From assembly GCF_000007185.1 (NCBI RefSeq), contig NC_003551.1, forward strand, positions 600,001 through 632,000: 32,000 bases of DNA, read 5' to 3'. Of the stretch, positions 10,854 through 27,258 are shown piece by piece; the first letter of the stretch is position 1; every line of letters begins with the position of its first letter. Origin of the DNA: Methanopyrus kandleri AV19. GTDB taxonomy: Archaea; JAADCQ01; Methanopyri; Methanopyrales; Methanopyraceae. The translations under genes were made by a program, and so were the position numbers. Below the pieces are notes generated by a model. It was not told the DNA's origin and did no database searches. It worked only from the letters and a program-made list of their open reading frames with translations.

Positions 10854-10986
10854 GTCCGCGAGGACGGGCGAGGTCTCACCCCCGATCGTGACCGCCCTAC
10901 CGGCGGGTTAATTAGGTGGCCCCCGGGTACGCGCCCTGCGCTCCCACTTGATAACACGGTCGGCGGTCCGGTGAATAAGGAAACCC

Positions 10987-20317: not shown

Positions 20318-21286
20318 TTGTTCTACTACCCGGGTAAGGAGCAGAAGGTGTGCGACATCTGCGGTGTGAAGGTCGGTGGCCAGCCCGGTGAGTACCCGAC
20401 CGTGCTAGCCGGTACCATCTTCTATGCCGGACACAAGATCGTGAAGGACGAGGACAAGGGGATCTTCGACGAGGAGGCCGCCGAGGAGCTCATCAAGATG
20501 GAGGAGGAACTCGCCGACGAGACCGGTAACCCGATGATGGCCCACATCATGGGTGAGTCAGAAGAGGCCATCATCCGCTACCTCGACTGGGTAGCCGACG
20601 TTACCGACGCACCCATCATCGTGGACTCCACCGAAGCCGAGGTCAAGGTCGCGGCGGTAAAGCACGCTCAGGAGGTCGGCCTCGCCGAGCGGGTGGTCTA
20701 CAACTCGATCAACGCCTCCGTCGAGGACGAGGAGATCCAGGCCATCAAGGAGTCCGACTGCAACTCGGCGATCGTCCTGGCCTTCAACCCGATGGACGCT
20801 TCCGTCGAGGGCCGTATGAAAATCCTCACCGAGGGCGAGGAGGGAGTATCCGAGAAGGGCATGCTGGAGATCTCCGACGAGTGTGGCATCGAGAACCCGC
20901 TGATCGACACAGCCTACACGCCGTTCGGCTCCGGTGCGGGTACCGCTTACAAGGTGACGCTCGCGGTGAAGGCCAAGCTGGGCCTGCCGGTGGGCGGTGC
21001 GCCCCACAACGTGCCGTCCGCTTGGGACTGGCTACGTGACTTCATGAAGAAGCTCAAGGAGGAAGGCAAGGAAGAGTGGGCCGAGCTAGCCCACGAGTCC
21101 TCCGACTGGGGCTCCAACGTAGTGGCGGCGACGCTGTGCTGCGACTACCTGCTGTTCGGTCCGATCGAGAACGCGCCGGCGATCTGGCCGGTCGTCGCCA
21201 TGGTCGACGCGCTGATCGTCGAGGCCAACGAGGACGTCGGCGTCGAGCCGCAGGTGGAGGAGCACCCGGCCAACATCGTCCGCTAA
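20318..21286 (+). CDS. mtrH: tetrahydromethanopterin S-methyltransferase subunit H
   Basis: 322 aa with a TTG start after CTTGGGGGTG. KVGGQPGEYPTVLAGTIFY...APIIVDSTEAEV...VVYNSINAS... Confidence 0.95.
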   Translation: MFYYPGKEQKVCDICGVKVGGQPGEYPTVLAGTIFYAGHKIVKDEDKGIFDEEAAEELIKMEEELADETGNPMMAHIMGESEEAIIRYLDWVADVTDAPIIVDSTEAEVKVAAVKHAQEVGLAERVVYNSINASVEDEEIQAIKESDCNSAIVLAFNPMDASVEGRMKILTEGEEGVSEKGMLEISDECGIENPLIDTAYTPFGSGAGTAYKVTLAVKAKLGLPVGGAPHNVPSAWDWLRDFMKKLKEEGKEEWAELAHESSDWGSNVVAATLCCDYLLFGPIENAPAIWPVVAMVDALIVEANEDVGVEPQVEEHPANIVR

Positions 21287-22561
21287 CGCCACAGACCCCG
21301 TTTTTTTCGCTTCCAACAGTCTCTCCCGGGCGTACTCGACCGCGTACGGATTCTCGTCCGAGAACCTCGGACCGTACCGCTCCAGAACATCCTCGATTTT
21401 CTCGTAACACTCGCTCGGGACGCGACCCGTGGTCGCATCCCAGCCGAACAGATTTTCCACGCGCTTAAGCCACTCGCCCACGCCCTTGGCCCCGTGCTCC
21501 AGCATGGCCTCGATCCACTCGTCGTTCGCCAGCTTCTGCTCCACGAGCCGCACCAGCTCCTCCTCGATGGGTCTCGTGATCACCCTATGCGGGTCCGTCG
21601 TGTCGTGGTGGTAGCACTCCACACGCTCGCCCGAGTGGTGCTCGGCGGCCGCCACCATCCCCCCGTGGAACGCGAAATGGCAGCAGCAGCTCAGCACATC
21701 CCACTCGTGCGAGGACTGGTTGACGGAGACGGCCCTCACGGTCGAGAGCGCCCGTCGGAACTCGGAGAAGGCCTCCTCACCGTACACGTCACTGCCGTAG
21801 GCGTACCCACCCCACCGCACGTACACGTCCGCGAGATCGGATCTGTCGTCCCATGCGGAGGCGTGTACGGCGTAGTTCACCCCGGCCCCGTACGCTCCCG
21901 GTGGATCCCCGAAGATGCGATGGTCGAGGGCGTGCTTCCTGACGAAGTTCCACCCTTCCGGTTCGTCCAACTCCCTCACGGCCTCGAATACCTCGTCGAG
22001 GAACTTCACCAGGTTCGGGAACGCATCACGAAACATTCCGCTTATCCTCACCACCACGTCGATCCGGGGCCGTTCCAGCTCCTCCAACGGCACTACCTCG
22101 AAGCCGCTCACGATACCGGATTCGTCCCACTCGGGTCTCACGCCCAGGAGCCACATCACCTGGGATAGAACCTCTCCGCCGGTTCGCATCACGTCCGACG
22201 CCCACAGCACGATACCGACGGACTCCGGGTAGCGTCCGTGCTCCTCCAGGTACCTCTCGATGGTGTTCTCGGCCAACTTCTTCCCGACCTTCCATGCCCT
22301 GCGGGTCGGGACCTTCCGCGGGTCTACGGAGTAGAAGTTCTTCCCCGTGGGAAGGACGTCGACGTCCCCACGGGTCGGGTTACCGGCCGGTCCAGGCTCG
22401 ACGTAGCATCCGTCCAGGGCCTCCAGCGTACGGTCGATCTCCCGTTCGCACGCGAGTAACCGACTCAACACACTCCGCACGAACTCCTTCGCCTCGTCGG
22501 GGACGTGTTTCCGGAGCTCCTCTTCGAGCTCCAACCTCGGCACCCCGGGCGTTGGTAGCAC
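21086..22561 (-). CDS. CobN/Mg-chelatase family protein, C-terminal half (the last ~66 codons are antisense mtrH and probably arise from a frameshift)
   Basis: GTG start. LDGCYVEPGPAGNPTRGDVDVLPTGKNFYSVDPRKVPT, VLWASDVMRTGGE, RPRIDVVVRISGMFRDAFPN, HHDTTDP. The conserved part ends at ...RERLLEAKK (about 21302), and the alternative frame gives RGLWR plus TAG at 21285-21283. Confidence 0.85.
   Translation of the reverse strand: MLPTPGVPRLELEEELRKHVPDEAKEFVRSVLSRLLACEREIDRTLEALDGCYVEPGPAGNPTRGDVDVLPTGKNFYSVDPRKVPTRRAWKVGKKLAENTIERYLEEHGRYPESVGIVLWASDVMRTGGEVLSQVMWLLGVRPEWDESGIVSGFEVVPLEELERPRIDVVVRISGMFRDAFPNLVKFLDEVFEAVRELDEPEGWNFVRKHALDHRIFGDPPGAYGAGVNYAVHASAWDDRSDLADVYVRWGGYAYGSDVYGEEAFSEFRRALSTVRAVSVNQSSHEWDVLSCCCHFAFHGGMVAAAEHHSGERVECYHHDTTDPHRVITRPIEEELVRLVEQKLANDEWIEAMLEHGAKGVGEWLKRVENLFGWDATTGRVPSECYEKIEDVLERYGPRFSDENPYAVEYARERLLEAKKTGSVALADDVGRVLLHLRLDADVLVGLDDQRVDHGDDRPDRRRVLDRTEQQVVAAQRRRHYVGAPVGGLVG
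21301..21307 (+). terminator. oligo-T (T7) tract 15 nt after the mtrH stop; likely mtr operon terminator
   Basis: CCCCGTTTTTTTCGC. Oligo-T tracts are the usual archaeal termination signal. On the minus strand the same run is an A7 inside the cobN C-half reading frame. Confidence 0.55.
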
Positions 22562-22606
22562 GAAAGCGATTCAAGGTAATACAGAATAAGTGTTCGGGGA
22601 TCACCG
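22562..22606. promoter_or_regulatory. 45-bp divergent spacer between the two cobN halves (putative bidirectional promoter)
   Basis: GAAAGCGATTCAAGGTAATACAGAATAAGTGTTCGGGGATCACCG has an AT-rich centre. GGGGA precedes TTG 22607, and no Shine-Dalgarno sequence is obvious for GTG 22561. Confidence 0.4.
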
Positions 22607-24328
22607 TTGCGAGTCCTGTGCGTATGCTCCGGCACGATGTTGAAAGCCGCCCGAGACGTCGCGGAGCGGTTCTCCGAGCTGAAAATCGACGTAGCTTACC
22701 AGGACGATCCGATCGACCCGAATCGGTACGACCTCATCGTGCTACTGAAGGTAACGAACGTGAACCTTCCGACGGATCACGACGCCGAGGTCGTCGCCGT
22801 GCCCCTCGACGGTTCCACCGGGATACAGCATCTGAACACTGCCCCGTCGAGCGTCGTCGAGCGGGCCGCGGAGTACCTGGAGAAGGGCGGGAAGGAAAAC
22901 CTCGAGAATGAGCGCGGGTTCGAGTCGTTCGAGAAGCTCGGTGTACCCGTCCTGAACGCCGTGGTGTCGTGGTACACCGACCGGGACGGGTGGCGGGAGT
23001 CCGAGGGAGGGCTCTCACCGGCCGACGTGGCGTACGGAATATCCCTGGCGGAGCTCCAGGGTAGGATCGATCCGGTGCTGGTCGGGACCAAGCGCGATCG
23101 TGGAGAGTTCGAGCCCTTACCCGAGCGGTGCCGGCTCGCCGCACGACGTGCCATCCGGTGGGCTCGACTCAGGCGCAAGGACCCCGCCGAGCGTCGCGTC
23201 GCCGTGGTGCTCAACAACGGGATATGCTCCGGAGGGGAGGCGAGGATCGGTGCTGCTATGGGACTGGACACGTTCGAGAGTCTCGCTCGACTGCTGCAGC
23301 ACATGGCCGAGGAGGGGTACCGGCTCGACTGGGTACCCAGGGACGGTCGGGAGCTGGAGCGCGAGTTCTTCCGGAGGAAGGCCTTCGACGAGTTCAAGCG
23401 CACGCGCGTGGAGGATATCGTCGCGTCCGGTGGGGCCGTGGACCTCGTTCCCCTCGATAGGTACCTCGAGTGGTTCGAGGAGCTCCCGGAGGAGCTCCAG
23501 GAGCGTATGGTCGAGACCTGGGGTGAACCTCCGGGCGACTCCATGGTGCTCGACGACCACCTAGTCATCGCCGGGATCCGAACGGGGAACGTGTTCCTGA
23601 CCGTTCAGCCGAAGCGCGGCTGCGCCGGTACCGAGTGCAACGGGGACGTCTGCAAGATCCTTCACGATCCACACTGCCCGCCGACGCACCATTACTACGC
23701 GTTCTACCGGTGGATCAGGGACGAGTTCCGGGCCGACGTGTTACTCCACGCCGGCACCCACGGGACCCTCGAGTGGTTGCCGGGGAAGTCCGTGGGACTG
23801 TCCCGAGAGTGTTGGCCCGAGGTGTGCTTGGGCGACCTGCCGGTAGTGTACTGGTACATCGTGAGCAATCCCTCGGAGGGAGTCCAGGCCAAACGCCGCG
23901 GGTACTCGACGCTAGTGGATCACTGCCCGCCCCCGATGGGGACTACCGAGGCCGGCCTAGAGGAGCTCGAGGAGCGGCTCGAAGAGGCGCTGCGCGACCC
24001 GGATCGCGAGGACCGGCGGCTCTTCGAGGAATGGGAGGTCCGCTCGGGGGCCTTCATCGAAAAGGGCTTACACGTGATCGGCGAACCCGCGTACGACCCG
24101 GAGCGTCTCTCGGAGTTCCTGTTCGCTCTCTGTAGGAACCGACTCCGAGAGCTGATCGCGGAGTCGGCTGGGCTGGATCTGGAGGAGCTGACCGAGCGTC
24201 CCGAGGCGGAGAACGACCTGTTCGGCGCCACGAACGCCGAGGTGCTGAGAGCCCTCGATGCGGTGATCCGAGGACTGTGTGAGGAGACCGTCTCGGAGGC
24301 ACACCACGGACCCGACCGAAAAGGATAA
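22607..24328 (+). CDS. CobN/Mg-chelatase family protein, N-terminal/middle half
   Basis: 573 aa with a TTG start. LGVPVLNAV, RVAVVLNNG...ARIGAAMGLDT, GNVFLTVQPKRG, DPHCPPTHHYYAFYRWI, HAGTHGTLEWLPGK, GDLPVVYWYIVSNPSEGVQAKRRGYSTLVDHCPPPM. Confidence 0.88.
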   Translation: MRVLCVCSGTMLKAARDVAERFSELKIDVAYQDDPIDPNRYDLIVLLKVTNVNLPTDHDAEVVAVPLDGSTGIQHLNTAPSSVVERAAEYLEKGGKENLENERGFESFEKLGVPVLNAVVSWYTDRDGWRESEGGLSPADVAYGISLAELQGRIDPVLVGTKRDRGEFEPLPERCRLAARRAIRWARLRRKDPAERRVAVVLNNGICSGGEARIGAAMGLDTFESLARLLQHMAEEGYRLDWVPRDGRELEREFFRRKAFDEFKRTRVEDIVASGGAVDLVPLDRYLEWFEELPEELQERMVETWGEPPGDSMVLDDHLVIAGIRTGNVFLTVQPKRGCAGTECNGDVCKILHDPHCPPTHHYYAFYRWIRDEFRADVLLHAGTHGTLEWLPGKSVGLSRECWPEVCLGDLPVVYWYIVSNPSEGVQAKRRGYSTLVDHCPPPMGTTEAGLEELEERLEEALRDPDREDRRLFEEWEVRSGAFIEKGLHVIGEPAYDPERLSEFLFALCRNRLRELIAESAGLDLEELTERPEAENDLFGATNAEVLRALDAVIRGLCEETVSEAHHGPDRKG

Positions 24329-24363
24329 CCTCCCCGGATCTCGGGACCCGCACGGGCTAACCT

Positions 24364-25800
24364 ATGGGATTATTCTCCAAGCTCTTCCGTCGCGGACCGA
24401 AGCCTCAAATCGCGGAGAGCGAGCGGGTCACGGGCCCCCTAGCCGTCAGCCGGGACTACTACATCGTGGCCTCCGTCGAGCTGGGTAACACGACCACTAA
24501 ATGCATCCTCACAGCTACCGACCTGAAGGAAGGCGTCACGTACCTTATTCACAAGGAGGTACGAATGACCAGGGACGTGCGCCCACCGCGGTCCGGAGAG
24601 GAGGTGTTCGGAAAGACCGTGTGGGGTGTCGAGCTCACGCGGGATTCCGTGGCCGAGATGGTGGCGGACACGCTCAAGTCGGCCGTCAAGAACGCCAACA
24701 TCAAGATCGACGACGTCCACTTCGTCGTGCGCTCCACCGGTGTGACCGCCGGGTTCGCGTCCCCGGAAGAAGTCGGCGAGATGATCAAGGCGCTCGCGGA
24801 CGGATGCCTGAAGGCCGGAGTGCCTCCCAATAGGATGACGGCGGCTATGAGCAAAGAGCAGATCCCGGAGCCCTTCAGGGAGCACTCCCTCATCGACAAG
24901 GTGTATTTCGACGGTGCCGTCACCGGCGTGAAGCCGCCGGCCGGGAAGGAGGTCGTGGCCAACGAGATGGAAGGAGAGCTGGTGATGGCCGGCATCAAGG
25001 TCGGCGCCAAGTCCACGAAGGTGGACTTCCGTAACCCCTGCATGGCCATAGACTACGGGACCACCCTCGCGGGCAGGATCACCAACGACGAGCTCCCCTA
25101 CGCGGATACGATCGGGAACCTTTGCGGTCTCGCCGGTGCGATCATGGACGCGATCGCCAGGGGATGCGGGGAGATCGACGAGGAGATCGGCTGCGCCTTG
25201 GACCTACCCTCCGACGTCGAGCCCGACGTAGGGGAGAAGGCCCGCGAGCTGGCGGAGGAGGCGCACGAGTACATCGACATCCGTGAGATACCCGCTAACC
25301 GAGAGCGCTTCGGTACGGTTCCGGTGAATCCCAAGGCCGCGAAGAAGGCGGGTCTCAAGCTCCTCGGCTGCGACGTCGGTGAGAACGGCAGTGATCTATC
25401 CCGACTCACCGAGATCGGCCGTGAGGCGTACGAAGAGGGAGGTTACGAGCTACTCTTCGGAGTCCTGGACTGGACCGCGACGCTGATCGCCAAACGTCTG
25501 ATCGAGACGGCCCTCGACCTGGATCTGATCGACGAGAACACCGCGATCGGGATCACCGGACGTGCCGGCACGACGGGCAAGAAGCCGGAGCTGATCTGTC
25601 GGATGATCGCGGAAGAGTTCGGAGACTACTGGGACCCGGAGGAAGACCTCGTCTTCGTCGACGACGGACTCGCCCGAGGCGCCGCTACGATGGCCCGATG
25701 CATGAACTGCCTCGGGACCCCGGAGAACCCGCTGGGAGGGAACCGTGGCGGGGGTTGTATCCTCGGTCTCAGGATCAAACACCAACAGGAGGGTTCCTGA
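24364..25800 (+). CDS. methanogen-conserved ASKHA-like (actin/Hsp70/reactivase-type ATPase fold) protein; possibly the 'methanogenesis marker 14' family
   Basis: 478 aa. The N-terminal phosphate-1-like strand-loop is IVASVELGNTTTKCIL, and later Gly-rich blocks are DYGTTLAGRI and GITGRAGTTGK. The family name is from memory only. Confidence 0.5.
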   Translation: MGLFSKLFRRGPKPQIAESERVTGPLAVSRDYYIVASVELGNTTTKCILTATDLKEGVTYLIHKEVRMTRDVRPPRSGEEVFGKTVWGVELTRDSVAEMVADTLKSAVKNANIKIDDVHFVVRSTGVTAGFASPEEVGEMIKALADGCLKAGVPPNRMTAAMSKEQIPEPFREHSLIDKVYFDGAVTGVKPPAGKEVVANEMEGELVMAGIKVGAKSTKVDFRNPCMAIDYGTTLAGRITNDELPYADTIGNLCGLAGAIMDAIARGCGEIDEEIGCALDLPSDVEPDVGEKARELAEEAHEYIDIREIPANRERFGTVPVNPKAAKKAGLKLLGCDVGENGSDLSRLTEIGREAYEEGGYELLFGVLDWTATLIAKRLIETALDLDLIDENTAIGITGRAGTTGKKPELICRMIAEEFGDYWDPEEDLVFVDDGLARGAATMARCMNCLGTPENPLGGNRGGGCILGLRIKHQQEGS

Positions 25801-26347
25801 CGTACCGCCCTCCGGCTTCCAGGAAGTACTCGAGAGCCTGGAGTCGGTGGAAACGTGTCGAGACCTCGCCTACTTATGCCGCGAGGTCGCCCGCCGTGCC
25901 GATCCCAGGGTCCTAGCCTTGCTCCGCAGGGACGCGTGGCGGCAGGCCCGGTTCGTCCACCCCAGGAGCTACCGTGAGAAGATCCTACGTTCCCTGTTCT
26001 TCGCACTGACCGCGAGGATCAACCAGATGCGGCGACTGGACCCCGAGGAATACCCGGAGGACCCCATCGAGGGTTACGATAGGTTCTTGGAGATCGTACG
26101 CGAGTACGCCGAGGACCCGGACTACGACTCCCCACTACTCCTCCTGTACGAGTCCCTCTCGGCCGCCTACGCCATCTTCCTACGCGGTGAGCCGGTTCAC
26201 CCGCCCGGTACGGAGTTCCCCGGAGTAGGGAAGGTCCGTCGGACGGACGACTGTTACTACTGCCCGATCAAGGAGCGACGTGAGGATCAGCCGGGGTCGT
26301 TCTGCACCTTATGTCCGGCGGAACAGGATCCGGAGGTGGTATCGTGA
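25745..26347 (+). CDS. UPF0305/DUF2115-like methanogen-specific protein (start uncertain: ATG 25745 overlaps the upstream gene by 56 nt; GTG 25847 gives 166 aa)
   Basis: ...CRDLAYLCREVARR...YREKILRSLFFALTARINQMR...YDRFLEIVREYAED...LYESLSAAYAIFLRGEPVHPPGTEFPG...YYCPIKERRED..SFCTLCP, with a C-terminal Cys cluster. The family name is from memory only. Confidence 0.5.
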   Translation: MAGVVSSVSGSNTNRRVPDVPPSGFQEVLESLESVETCRDLAYLCREVARRADPRVLALLRRDAWRQARFVHPRSYREKILRSLFFALTARINQMRRLDPEEYPEDPIEGYDRFLEIVREYAEDPDYDSPLLLLYESLSAAYAIFLRGEPVHPPGTEFPGVGKVRRTDDCYYCPIKERREDQPGSFCTLCPAEQDPEVVS

Positions 26348-27258
26348 GGCCTGTGGTGACGGTCGTGGGCAGTCACCCGGTCGGTCACGAGCCCACGCTC
26401 AAGGATCGCCTCCTCGAGAAACTCAGGAGGAGGTCCGCCTACGCTCCCGCCATACATGAGGCCGTCCGCGACCAGACGGAGGCGGGTGTGGAGCTGGTCT
26501 CCGACGGCCAGGTTCGGGGGGACATGATCGAGATCTTCGCCTCTCACATCCCCGGGATGACCGTCGAGGACGGCCCCGCGGTGATAGGTCGGGTGGAGCC
26601 CCCCAGGTTCTCGCCCCTAGTGCTCGATTACCGCGAGGCTACTCGGGTCGCGGGGGAGGTCGAAGTCAAGGCGATCCTCACCGGCCCGGTCACGCTGTGT
26701 TATTCCCTCGAGGTGCGCACGGATCTTTACCCCTCCAACGACCATTCCAGCCTCTTGAAGGACGTGGCGCGAGCCCTGTCGGCGGAGGCCCGGCTACTCC
26801 GGCGCGAAGGGGCGAGCGTACTGCAGGTGGACGAGCCGATACTGTCGGCCGGTGTGACCTCCGTTAAGAAGGTGGCTCGATACGTGAACACCGTCCTGAA
26901 GGCGTTCAAGGGCGGTACCAGGGTCCTACACGTCTGCGGAGACGTCACCGAGGTGTACCTCGATCTGGAGGAGAACATCGACGCCGACGTGTTCGACCAC
27001 GAGTTCGCCGGTCACCCGGAGAACCTCGAGGTCGTCGCCGAAGGAGATAGCCCGATCGGCGTCGGAGTGGTGCGCTCCGATACCGACCGCGTCGAGAGTT
27101 TGGACGAGGTGGTAGGACTGCTGGAGAAGGCGCGGGAGGCGATGGGAGACCGTATCGAGTTCGTGGACCCCGACTGCGGTCTCCGGAAGCTACCCCGTGA
27201 GATCGCCAAGAAGAAGCTCGAGGTGGTCCGGAAGGCCAGGGACCGCGTGTTTCGTTAA
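26344..27258 (+). CDS. short archaeal MetE-type (cobalamin-independent methionine synthase catalytic-domain) methyltransferase
   Basis: GTG 26344 (V12 of the tracked ORF) overlaps the upstream stop as GTGA. GSHPV..., SDGQVRGDMIEIF, LTGPVT, LQVDEP, Zn-ligand-like LHVCGDV and FVDPDCGLRKLP. Confidence 0.8.
   Translation: MRPVVTVVGSHPVGHEPTLKDRLLEKLRRRSAYAPAIHEAVRDQTEAGVELVSDGQVRGDMIEIFASHIPGMTVEDGPAVIGRVEPPRFSPLVLDYREATRVAGEVEVKAILTGPVTLCYSLEVRTDLYPSNDHSSLLKDVARALSAEARLLRREGASVLQVDEPILSAGVTSVKKVARYVNTVLKAFKGGTRVLHVCGDVTEVYLDLEENIDADVFDHEFAGHPENLEVVAEGDSPIGVGVVRSDTDRVESLDEVVGLLEKAREAMGDRIEFVDPDCGLRKLPREIAKKKLEVVRKARDRVFR

Follow-up and report, generated by a model that had tools for sequence, protein, structure and literature searches.

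The head-to-head arrangement of two CobN-like open reading frames (ORFs) in the genome of Methanopyrus kandleri AV19 raises the question of whether these frames are the debris of a broken gene, the product of a local rearrangement, or the two genes of an enzyme that is made in two parts. The window analysed here comprises 32,000 nucleotides (NC_003551.1, positions 600,001 to 632,000 of the forward strand, and all coordinates below refer to this window). It contains an ORF for the N-terminal half on the plus strand (22607-24328) and an ORF for the C-terminal half on the minus strand (21086-22561), both lying where a preliminary description had placed them. That description had proposed a CobN-type chelatase in complementary halves, whose 3' half had been inverted and whose two subunits were expressed from a bidirectional promoter. 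The explanation that we consider best, with a probability of roughly 0.75, is that M. kandleri AV19 carries two genes for a naturally split protein of the CobN family, the large subunit of class I chelatases, which binds both tetrapyrrole and metal.

The N-half gene starts with TTG and codes for 573 amino acids, matching exactly the protein AAM01879.1 / WP_011019034.1. The C-half ORF, read from its first possible start GTG, codes for 491 amino acids and corresponds to AAM01878.1, which has no RefSeq WP accession and is named in GenBank [quoted passage not shown]. When compared with the profile PF02514 (CobN-Mg_chel; 1090 positions; gathering cut-off 24.5 bits), both halves scored above the cut-off and covered distinct segments, positions 133-511 in the case of the N-half (E 4e-136, 455.9 bits) and positions 676-1081 in the case of the C-half (E 4e-158, 528.8 bits). 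Similarly, the N-half aligned with residues 273-635 and the C-half with residues 796-1205 of CobN from Mycobacterium tuberculosis (PDB 7c6o, 1230 amino acids). From PF02514, the PDB CobN and the orthologues, it is evident that the homology-supported part of the C-half comprises residues 10-420 of the 491-residue ORF (21302-22534, minus strand) and that similarity to CobN ends at residue 420. The top structural matches of the AlphaFold2 model of an intact N-half orthologue were CobN, HmuS, and ChlH. The idea of complementary halves of one CobN-type protein was thus borne out, and because neither the profile nor the PDB chain is covered twice, the possibility that the ORFs are remnants of two paralogues of the same CobN region is practically negligible. 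The same holds for an artefact of assembly, as the same layout is found in the complete KOL6 genome, in several metagenome-assembled genomes (MAGs), and in three Logan assemblies (99.98-100% identity). Neither half reached any of the NCBIfam equivalogue cut-offs for CobN and BchH; for the best of these models, NF004646, scores of 424 bits (N-half) and 441 bits (C-half) compare with a cut-off of 1468, and for TIGR02257 scores of 292 and 417 with a cut-off of 822.

Structures of CobN, ChlH, and HmuS consist of a head (domain I), a neck (domain II), and a body (domains III-VI), in which the C-terminal half is made up of domains V and VI and the active site is situated between domains III and V (PMC12583661; bioRxiv 10.64898/2026.07.21.739949). 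The body was likened to pliers in a recent preprint (bioRxiv 10.64898/2026.07.21.739949). Instead of being united in a single polypeptide, the six domains are here distributed over two genes on opposite strands: the N-half contains head domain I and body domains III and IV, with no more than a remnant of the intervening neck domain II in AV19, and the C-half contains body domains V and VI. The break falls into the variable linker between domains IV and V, in agreement with the preliminary description, which had located it in the variable linker. Each half supplies one face of the active-site cleft. In the N-half this is the HAGTHG motif of the domain III active-site loop (23747-23764, plus strand; residues 381-386), which was located by alignment to CobN and ChlH, is invariant in alignments A1 and A2, and belongs to the H(F/A)G(T/A)HG loop whose role across the superfamily has been described (PMC12583661). 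In the C-half it is the domain V active-site motif SSHEWDVLSCCCHFAFHGG (21659-21715, minus strand; residues 283-301), which was located by a motif census of C-part homologues. Accordingly arranged, the N-half would provide head and neck together with one jaw and its handle (domains III and IV with the HxGTHG loop), and the C-half would provide the other jaw and handle (domains V and VI with the E-x-D / CCC / HGG motif). As each half contributes one face, the cleft would form only when both polypeptides associate non-covalently. A free-standing protein made of domains V and VI is credible, because crystal structures exist for C-terminal fragments of ChlH and CobN in isolation (5ewu, 6ys9, 9fpc).

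Ratios of nonsynonymous to synonymous substitution rates (dN/dS) obtained by the Nei-Gojobori method show that both halves are under purifying selection. Between AV19 and KOL6, dN/dS was 0.113 for the N-half and 0.107 for the C-half, and in the other Methanopyrus pairs (AV19 or KOL6 versus loci L006 or L007, and L006 versus L007) it ranged from 0.14 to 0.26 and from 0.14 to 0.25, respectively. For two genomes in which the halves are unlinked, values of 0.108 and 0.125 were found. For comparison, dN/dS was 0.10-0.22 for metE, about 0.05 for mmp14, and 0.025 for mtrH. Such low ratios indicate that both halves are functional genes in this lineage. Long-standing pseudogenes were considered and rejected, since values of 0.11-0.26 lie in the same range as those of metE, though above those of mtrH and mmp14.

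In order to see whether the division is peculiar to Methanopyrus, the subfamily was surveyed in one genome per species. Among the 80 loci listed, which do not include AV19, there were 57 fused and 17 colinearly split copies, 2 copies of the N-part alone, 1 divergent copy (in a Methanopyrus-like MAG), and 9 copies cut by a contig end. The statement that these sequence blocks are colinear in one polypeptide is therefore not universal in this subfamily, given the 17 colinearly split copies. Splits in the same linker with adjacent colinear halves occur in many other archaea and in some bacteria, and the closest database relatives have N-halves of 670-850 and C-halves of 410-520 amino acids, many of them on long contigs. 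In Archaeoglobus veneficus, for example, an N-part of 784 and a C-part of 497 amino acids are encoded by adjacent, co-directional genes with one base between them; residue 688 of the KOL6 N-half aligns with residue 769 of the 784-residue N-part, and residue 7 of the window C-half aligns with residue 4 of the C-part. When split pairs were aligned with fused homologues, all split junctions lay in one variable linker, no more than about 13 columns apart, and the junction of locus L090 is in the same linker as those of Methanopyrus and A. veneficus. A split intein or trans-splicing was also considered and rejected: the fused proteins run continuously over the junction and the halves have no extra residues, so neither an intein nor added sequence is present. 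Full-text literature searches returned no description of a split CobN.

In a neighbour-joining tree of concatenated N- and C-parts, a rough distance tree calculated without support values, Methanopyrus appeared as sister to a mostly thermophilic archaeal clade, 12 of whose members are split and 2 fused. Same-linker splits elsewhere, together with a mostly split sister clade, are indicative of a split that is inherited, widespread, and older than Methanopyrus rather than the result of a local inversion, as far as can be judged from sequence comparison. The two fused genes nested in the split thermophilic clade are L016 (Archaeoglobus sp. UBA234) and L078 (a Desulfurococcales MAG). Sporadic splits were also observed in the mostly fused clade (L017, L038, L073, and L035/L044/L051); L035/L044/L051 belong to Thermodesulfobacteria and a Desulfobacteraceae MAG, and two of the sporadic splits have an in-frame TAA. 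The IV/V linker thus looks like a site at which splitting and fusion are evolutionarily labile. The tree entry L063b is a truncated copy, and its label 'opposite' is an artefact.

The order of genes within the Methanopyrales bears on how the two halves may have come to lie where they are found. The C-half is convergent with mtrH (20318-21286, plus strand; assigned by Pfam), which lies immediately upstream of the pair, as had been noted earlier when the pair was located directly downstream of the mcr-mtr super-operon; at the orthologous KOL6 locus the full mtrEDCBAGH series is annotated. Downstream of the N-half follow the gene for methanogenesis marker 14 (mmp14, DUF2114), a DUF2115 gene, and a gene for a MetE-type methionine synthase, the N-half being the first gene of this co-directional cluster. 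The head-to-head pair is also present in KOL6 (93% amino acid identity) and in the MAGs L006 (77% identity) and L007 (73% identity). In a deeper Methanopyrales lineage (69-71% identity), the halves are unlinked, and in GCA_054016775.1 they are on different contigs of a single assembly, so that neither adjacency nor a shared promoter is required. In that lineage, the N-half follows feoAB and two small ORFs and precedes mmp14, and the C-half, on the other contig, is flanked by mtd/DUF1678 and a convergent mtrH. What has been conserved is therefore the linkage of the C-half with mtrH and that of the N-half with mmp14, DUF2115, and metE, and the head-to-head layout amounts to the abutment of these two blocks; it is a lineage-specific feature of gene order. 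The history may have started from a pair of adjacent colinear halves, often followed by a gene for a ChlI-ChlD motor, as seen in mostly thermophilic archaea. In the Methanopyrales the halves would have been uncoupled, the C-half staying convergent with mtrH and the N-half heading the mmp14/DUF2115/metE cluster, and in the kandleri clade the two blocks would have come to abut head to head, leaving a spacer of about 72 bp that includes a conserved AT-rich core. A natural split of this kind means that the jaws of the chelatase (domains III and IV, and domains V and VI) can be produced as separate proteins, even from unlinked loci, which makes the pair a ready-made system for studying the assembly of the active-site cleft.

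These data bear directly on the proposal that a contiguous cobN was cut by a local inversion, which would have created a new two-subunit chelatase together with a new bidirectional promoter. The geometry is what such an event would leave behind: the halves are head to head, 45-72 bp apart with an AT-rich centre, exactly this geometry would result if the N-half of a minus-strand gene were inverted in place, and the arrangement has been kept in three further genomes. However, the same linker is split in the 17 copies with colinear halves, the sister clade is mostly split, and in the deeper Methanopyrales the halves are unlinked with the C-half still beside mtrH and the N-half still beside mmp14. 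No inverted repeats were found at the borders of the N-half, and an inversion bounded by repeats or by recombinase sites was rejected because only short inverted repeats at chance level were detected, none of them at these borders. We therefore regard an inversion of this kind as improbable. Comparison of synteny, in which related archaea often proved to be colinearly split, likewise led us to abandon the inversion of the 3' half as the cause of the split. The two-subunit idea itself is supported by the comparative evidence, and the 'fragment' of the AV19 annotation is, on this evidence, predicted to be one half of a conserved two-gene enzyme.

A different question is whether the pair is intact in AV19 itself. 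BLASTP and blastn comparisons with KOL6 revealed that the AV19 N-half lacks exactly 366 nt, an in-frame deletion of 122 residues (residues 102-223 of KOL6) that are present in every orthologue. The deletion junction lies at 22907-22912 (plus strand), between codon 101 (AAT) and codon 102 (GAG), with 2 nt of microhomology. The deleted stretch corresponds approximately to residues 152-271 of M. tuberculosis CobN, and in the AlphaFold2 model of the KOL6 N-half it begins halfway along the last head helix, ends where helix 223-231 starts, and includes five beta-strands within residues 126-214, where the predicted local distance difference test score is mostly >85. According to this model, the deletion would remove most of neck domain II. 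In the C-half, a homopolymer at 21301-21307 (T7 on the plus strand, A7 on the minus strand) has 7 bases, and there are 6 in KOL6; this change in the length of the A-run causes a frameshift. The resulting tail (21086-21301, minus strand) consists of 71 codons (21089-21301) and a stop codon, is antisense to the 3' end of mtrH, of which it overlaps the last 201 nt, and replaces the conserved end R(D/G)LWR of all other Methanopyrus C-halves, so that the last five residues are lost. Three independent Logan assemblies, 99.98-100% identical to the window over 4.6-6.7 kb, contain both lesions, and their sole mismatch is at 26779 in one of the three; an error of sequencing or assembly was therefore rejected for both the deletion and the frameshift. 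As neither lesion is present in the closest M. kandleri relative P0243 (N-half of 695 amino acids, 96.7% identical; C-half of 416 amino acids), both are recent and strain-specific. In AV19, the pair has thus been damaged recently: most of the neck would have been lost by the 366-nt deletion, and one additional base in the A-run would have exchanged the last five residues for the unrelated tail. The copy of this type strain is consequently not representative of the pair.

Could the AV19 pair then be decaying or already inactive, its ORFs remaining open only owing to the recent date of the lesions and the scarcity of stop codons in a GC-rich genome? This possibility is rather doubtful, although it accounts for several observations. 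Both lesions, with the 71 unrelated residues added by the frameshift, are real, there are no partner genes nearby in the 32-kb window, the C-half is called a fragment in GenBank, and frameshifted copies also exist in SNP6 and one other strain. On the other hand, the deletion is in frame at codon boundaries and affects an accessory domain rather than the catalytic body, the frameshift alters no more than the last five residues, purifying selection is clear throughout the lineage, and the frameshifts in SNP6 and the MAG are possibly errors of long reads. The N-half has 9 AV19-specific versus 4 sister-specific replacements and the C-half 3 genuine AV19-specific versus 6, differences that are not significant, and a relaxation of selection signalled by an excess of AV19-specific replacements was rejected on these counts. 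The assertion that both halves stay open and are not decaying thus stands for the lineage, where the pair represents two conserved genes and not the debris of old pseudogenes (dN/dS of 0.11 between AV19 and KOL6 and 0.11-0.13 in the unlinked lineage), and has to be qualified for AV19 because of its deletion and frameshift. With respect to the other broken copies, Methanopyrus sp. SNP6 (P0244, P0260, P0261) has a 3' frameshift in the N-half (672 amino acids) and a C-half in pieces of 264 and 151 amino acids, and another assembly (P0249, P0254; on a 75-kb contig) has pieces of 417 and 217 amino acids; these could reflect real decay or long-read indel errors. Many long ORFs of 200-260 codons lying antisense to or out of frame with the real genes, such as 21494-22168 (plus), 22294-22911 (plus), 22777-23568 (minus), and others, are to be expected where GC content is high and stop codons are few and do not indicate genes, and the frameshifted tail runs for 71 codons for the same reason. 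The T7 run starts 14 nt past the mtrH stop codon (21284-21286) and may, judging from its position, terminate the mcr-mtr transcription unit as an oligo-T signal; read on the minus strand, it encodes the KK that almost concludes the C-half. Two convergent genes thus appear to make use of one homopolymer.

Several points weigh against a naturally split chelatase that is inherited from before Methanopyrus and active in AV19. The Methanopyrus junction lies about 9-13 columns from that of A. veneficus in a linker that aligns poorly, the distance tree is a rough one, and an independent split in the same linker may have taken place. Lacking its neck domain, the AV19 N-half may be inactive. Searches of the 32-kb window by tblastn with two ChlI-ChlD fusions gave no match, and an ATP-binding cassette (ABC) importer and NikR are absent from the window as well. 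Finally, all Methanopyrales have EWD instead of EHD in domain V, within the sequence SHEWD, with Trp at the position of the aligned His, which in the superfamily is opposite the His of domain III in the cleft, and a His two residues earlier, and their C-halves stop right after GLW without the last helix of domain VI, the helix that in Brucella melitensis CobN adjoins the metal ion-dependent adhesion site of CobT. Because of the change from EHD to EWD and the missing helix, sequence features suggest that classical chelatase chemistry is not assured.

At the metal site, the subfamily departs from classical CobN. At the position of SSHEWDVLSCCCHFAFHGG, canonical CobN has EHD..DSDDYFQYHGG and the sister archaeal group has EHD..CCCYF.YHGG; the acidic DSDD metal-ligand stretch, which includes the ligand D1100 of B. 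melitensis CobN, is replaced by SCCC/CCC here, and all Methanopyrales have CCCH instead of CCCY. A second Cys-rich motif, QPKRGCAGTECNGDVCKILHDPHCPP, lies in domain III (23606-23683, plus strand), with Cys and His columns that do not vary in alignments A1 and A2. This signature motif of the subfamily has the Cys4-like consensus QPK(R/F)GCAGxxCxGxxCKILHDPxCPP, and M. tuberculosis CobN has a gap opposite it. The CCC and Cys4-like motifs suggest thiolate metal ligands or possibly an Fe-S site. Loci with CCC and the Cys4-like motif of domain III are L004, L090, L091, and most of L007-L086. Within 10 kb of the listed subfamily loci, a ChlI-ChlD fusion was found in about 37/80 cases, a BtuF/FecCD-type ABC importer in about 46/80, and NikR in 6/80 and in addition at L090; the subfamily neighbourhood may be a nickel-linked module for uptake and (de)chelation. 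Locus L091 adjoins a gene for uroporphyrinogen-III synthase.

What CobN/ChlH/HmuS homologues do in archaea without the aerobic routes to B12 and chlorophyll is a recognised question, and the role of the archaeal homologues has been stated as unclear (PMC12583661). A 'CobN1' of Methanothermobacter is made only under nickel limitation (PMC12350162). Based on that report and on the ChlI-ChlD, importer, and NikR neighbours, a nickel-linked reading can be formulated, in which the CCC subfamily, fused or split, would not be a B12 cobalt chelatase but the core of a nickel-linked metal-tetrapyrrole or metallophore system, and the Methanopyrus version, reduced to two polypeptides with an altered metal site (EWD, CCCH) and without the terminal helix, would perhaps serve F430/corrinoid metal homeostasis without a motor of the AAA+ (ATPases associated with diverse cellular activities) type. 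This reading is speculative and considered unlikely. The Methanopyrus pair itself adjoins mcr-mtr, mmp14, DUF2115, and a corrinoid-dependent MetE. As a working guess, weakly held, the pair may be a chelatase-type enzyme acting on metal macrocycles with thiolate ligands, possibly in relation to nickel. The links to NikR and importers, like the richness of the metal site in thiolates, point to a chemistry unlike classical insertion of cobalt or magnesium, and the uncharacterised Cys-rich CobN subfamily as a whole is a more interesting lead than the layout in AV19.

Comparison with related systems shows what is shared and what differs. With canonical CobN (M. tuberculosis 7C6O; B. melitensis 9UK9; acting with CobS/CobT), the pair shares the Pfam family, the order of domains, the HxGTHG loop, PxEG...AKRR, and the ...HGG of domain V, and CobN provides its best PDB matches in sequence and fold. 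Canonical CobN is one chain of about 1200-1280 amino acids whereas here there are 695 + 416 amino acids in intact pairs and 573 + 482 in AV19; in addition to CCC for DSDD and EWD for EHD, the extra Cys4-like motif of domain III and the missing last helix of domain VI set the pair apart, and neither CobS/CobT nor ChlI/ChlD is encoded nearby. The uncharacterised colinear split pairs of thermophilic archaea (A. veneficus, 784 + 497 amino acids; Desulfurococcaceae, 796 + 506 amino acids) have the same IV/V break, share CCC and the domain III Cys motif with Methanopyrus, and are its sister group in the neighbour-joining tree. They are adjacent and co-directional with a gap of 1 nt or a short overlap, whereas the Methanopyrus halves are divergent or unlinked, and they usually have a ChlI-ChlD fusion next, a BtuF/FecCD-type importer beside them, and sometimes NikR, which the Methanopyrus neighbourhood does not have. 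Compared with these pairs, Methanopyrus has EWD for EHD and a C-terminus that is about 60-80 amino acids shorter.

In the case of ChlH/BchH (Synechocystis 4ZHJ, 6YSG), the isolated C-terminal half (5EWU, 6YS9) folds alone; ChlH differs in being a single chain of about 1330 amino acids with a larger head that inserts Mg into protoporphyrin IX, and it has about 20-30% identity to the halves. The heme dechelatase HmuS of Bacteroidota (9D26) is another member of the superfamily and shares its domain plan, and it demonstrates that removal of a metal without ATP is possible in this superfamily (PMC12583661). HmuS consists of one chain anchored in the membrane, has a Met-rich insertion and the motif LSLDHxxEFMGG, and is encoded in the hmu operon; none of these features is found here. 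A precedent of another kind exists in the same organism. Reverse gyrase of M. kandleri consists of two subunits and is a single chain elsewhere; it likewise comes as two polypeptides, but it belongs to an unrelated family, and the split of CobN is not specific to Methanopyrus.

The spacer between the halves was examined for features of expression. The first possible starts, GTG at 22561 and TTG at 22607, are separated by 45 bp, the distance given in the preliminary description. However, orthologous C-halves of 412-419 amino acids begin at the TTG equivalent of 22534, and the gap is therefore more likely 72 bp (22535-22606). Sequences resembling Shine-Dalgarno sites, GGGGTG for the C-half and GGGGAT for the N-half, precede the two TTG starts by about 5-6 nt. 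The spacer contains CGAAA at 22561-22565 and an AT-rich core, AAGGTAATACAGAATAAG, at 22573-22590; the core AAGGTAAYACMGAATAAG and CGAAA are conserved in AV19, KOL6, and L006 (77% identity) while the flanks diverge. The two divergent starts are thus less than about 100 bp apart and enclose a conserved AT-rich core; the spacer probably holds two putative divergent archaeal promoters, and the conserved core makes a candidate bidirectional promoter plausible. On the side of the N-half, the genes of the cluster (22607-27258) are separated by a gap of 35 nt and then by overlaps of 56 and 37 nt, and the order N-half, mmp14, DUF2115, metE is kept in all Methanopyrales loci examined (L001, L002, L006, L007, L092). 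The conserved order and the short gaps and overlaps suggest one operon, combining a chelatase half, mmp14, and a corrinoid-dependent methyltransferase. The heptamer GAATAAG occurs at 22584-22590 in the spacer core and again at about 10974-10980, some 50 nt upstream of the mcrB start and beside a TTTAAAG box; its recurrence may be due to chance or may reflect a shared promoter-proximal element.

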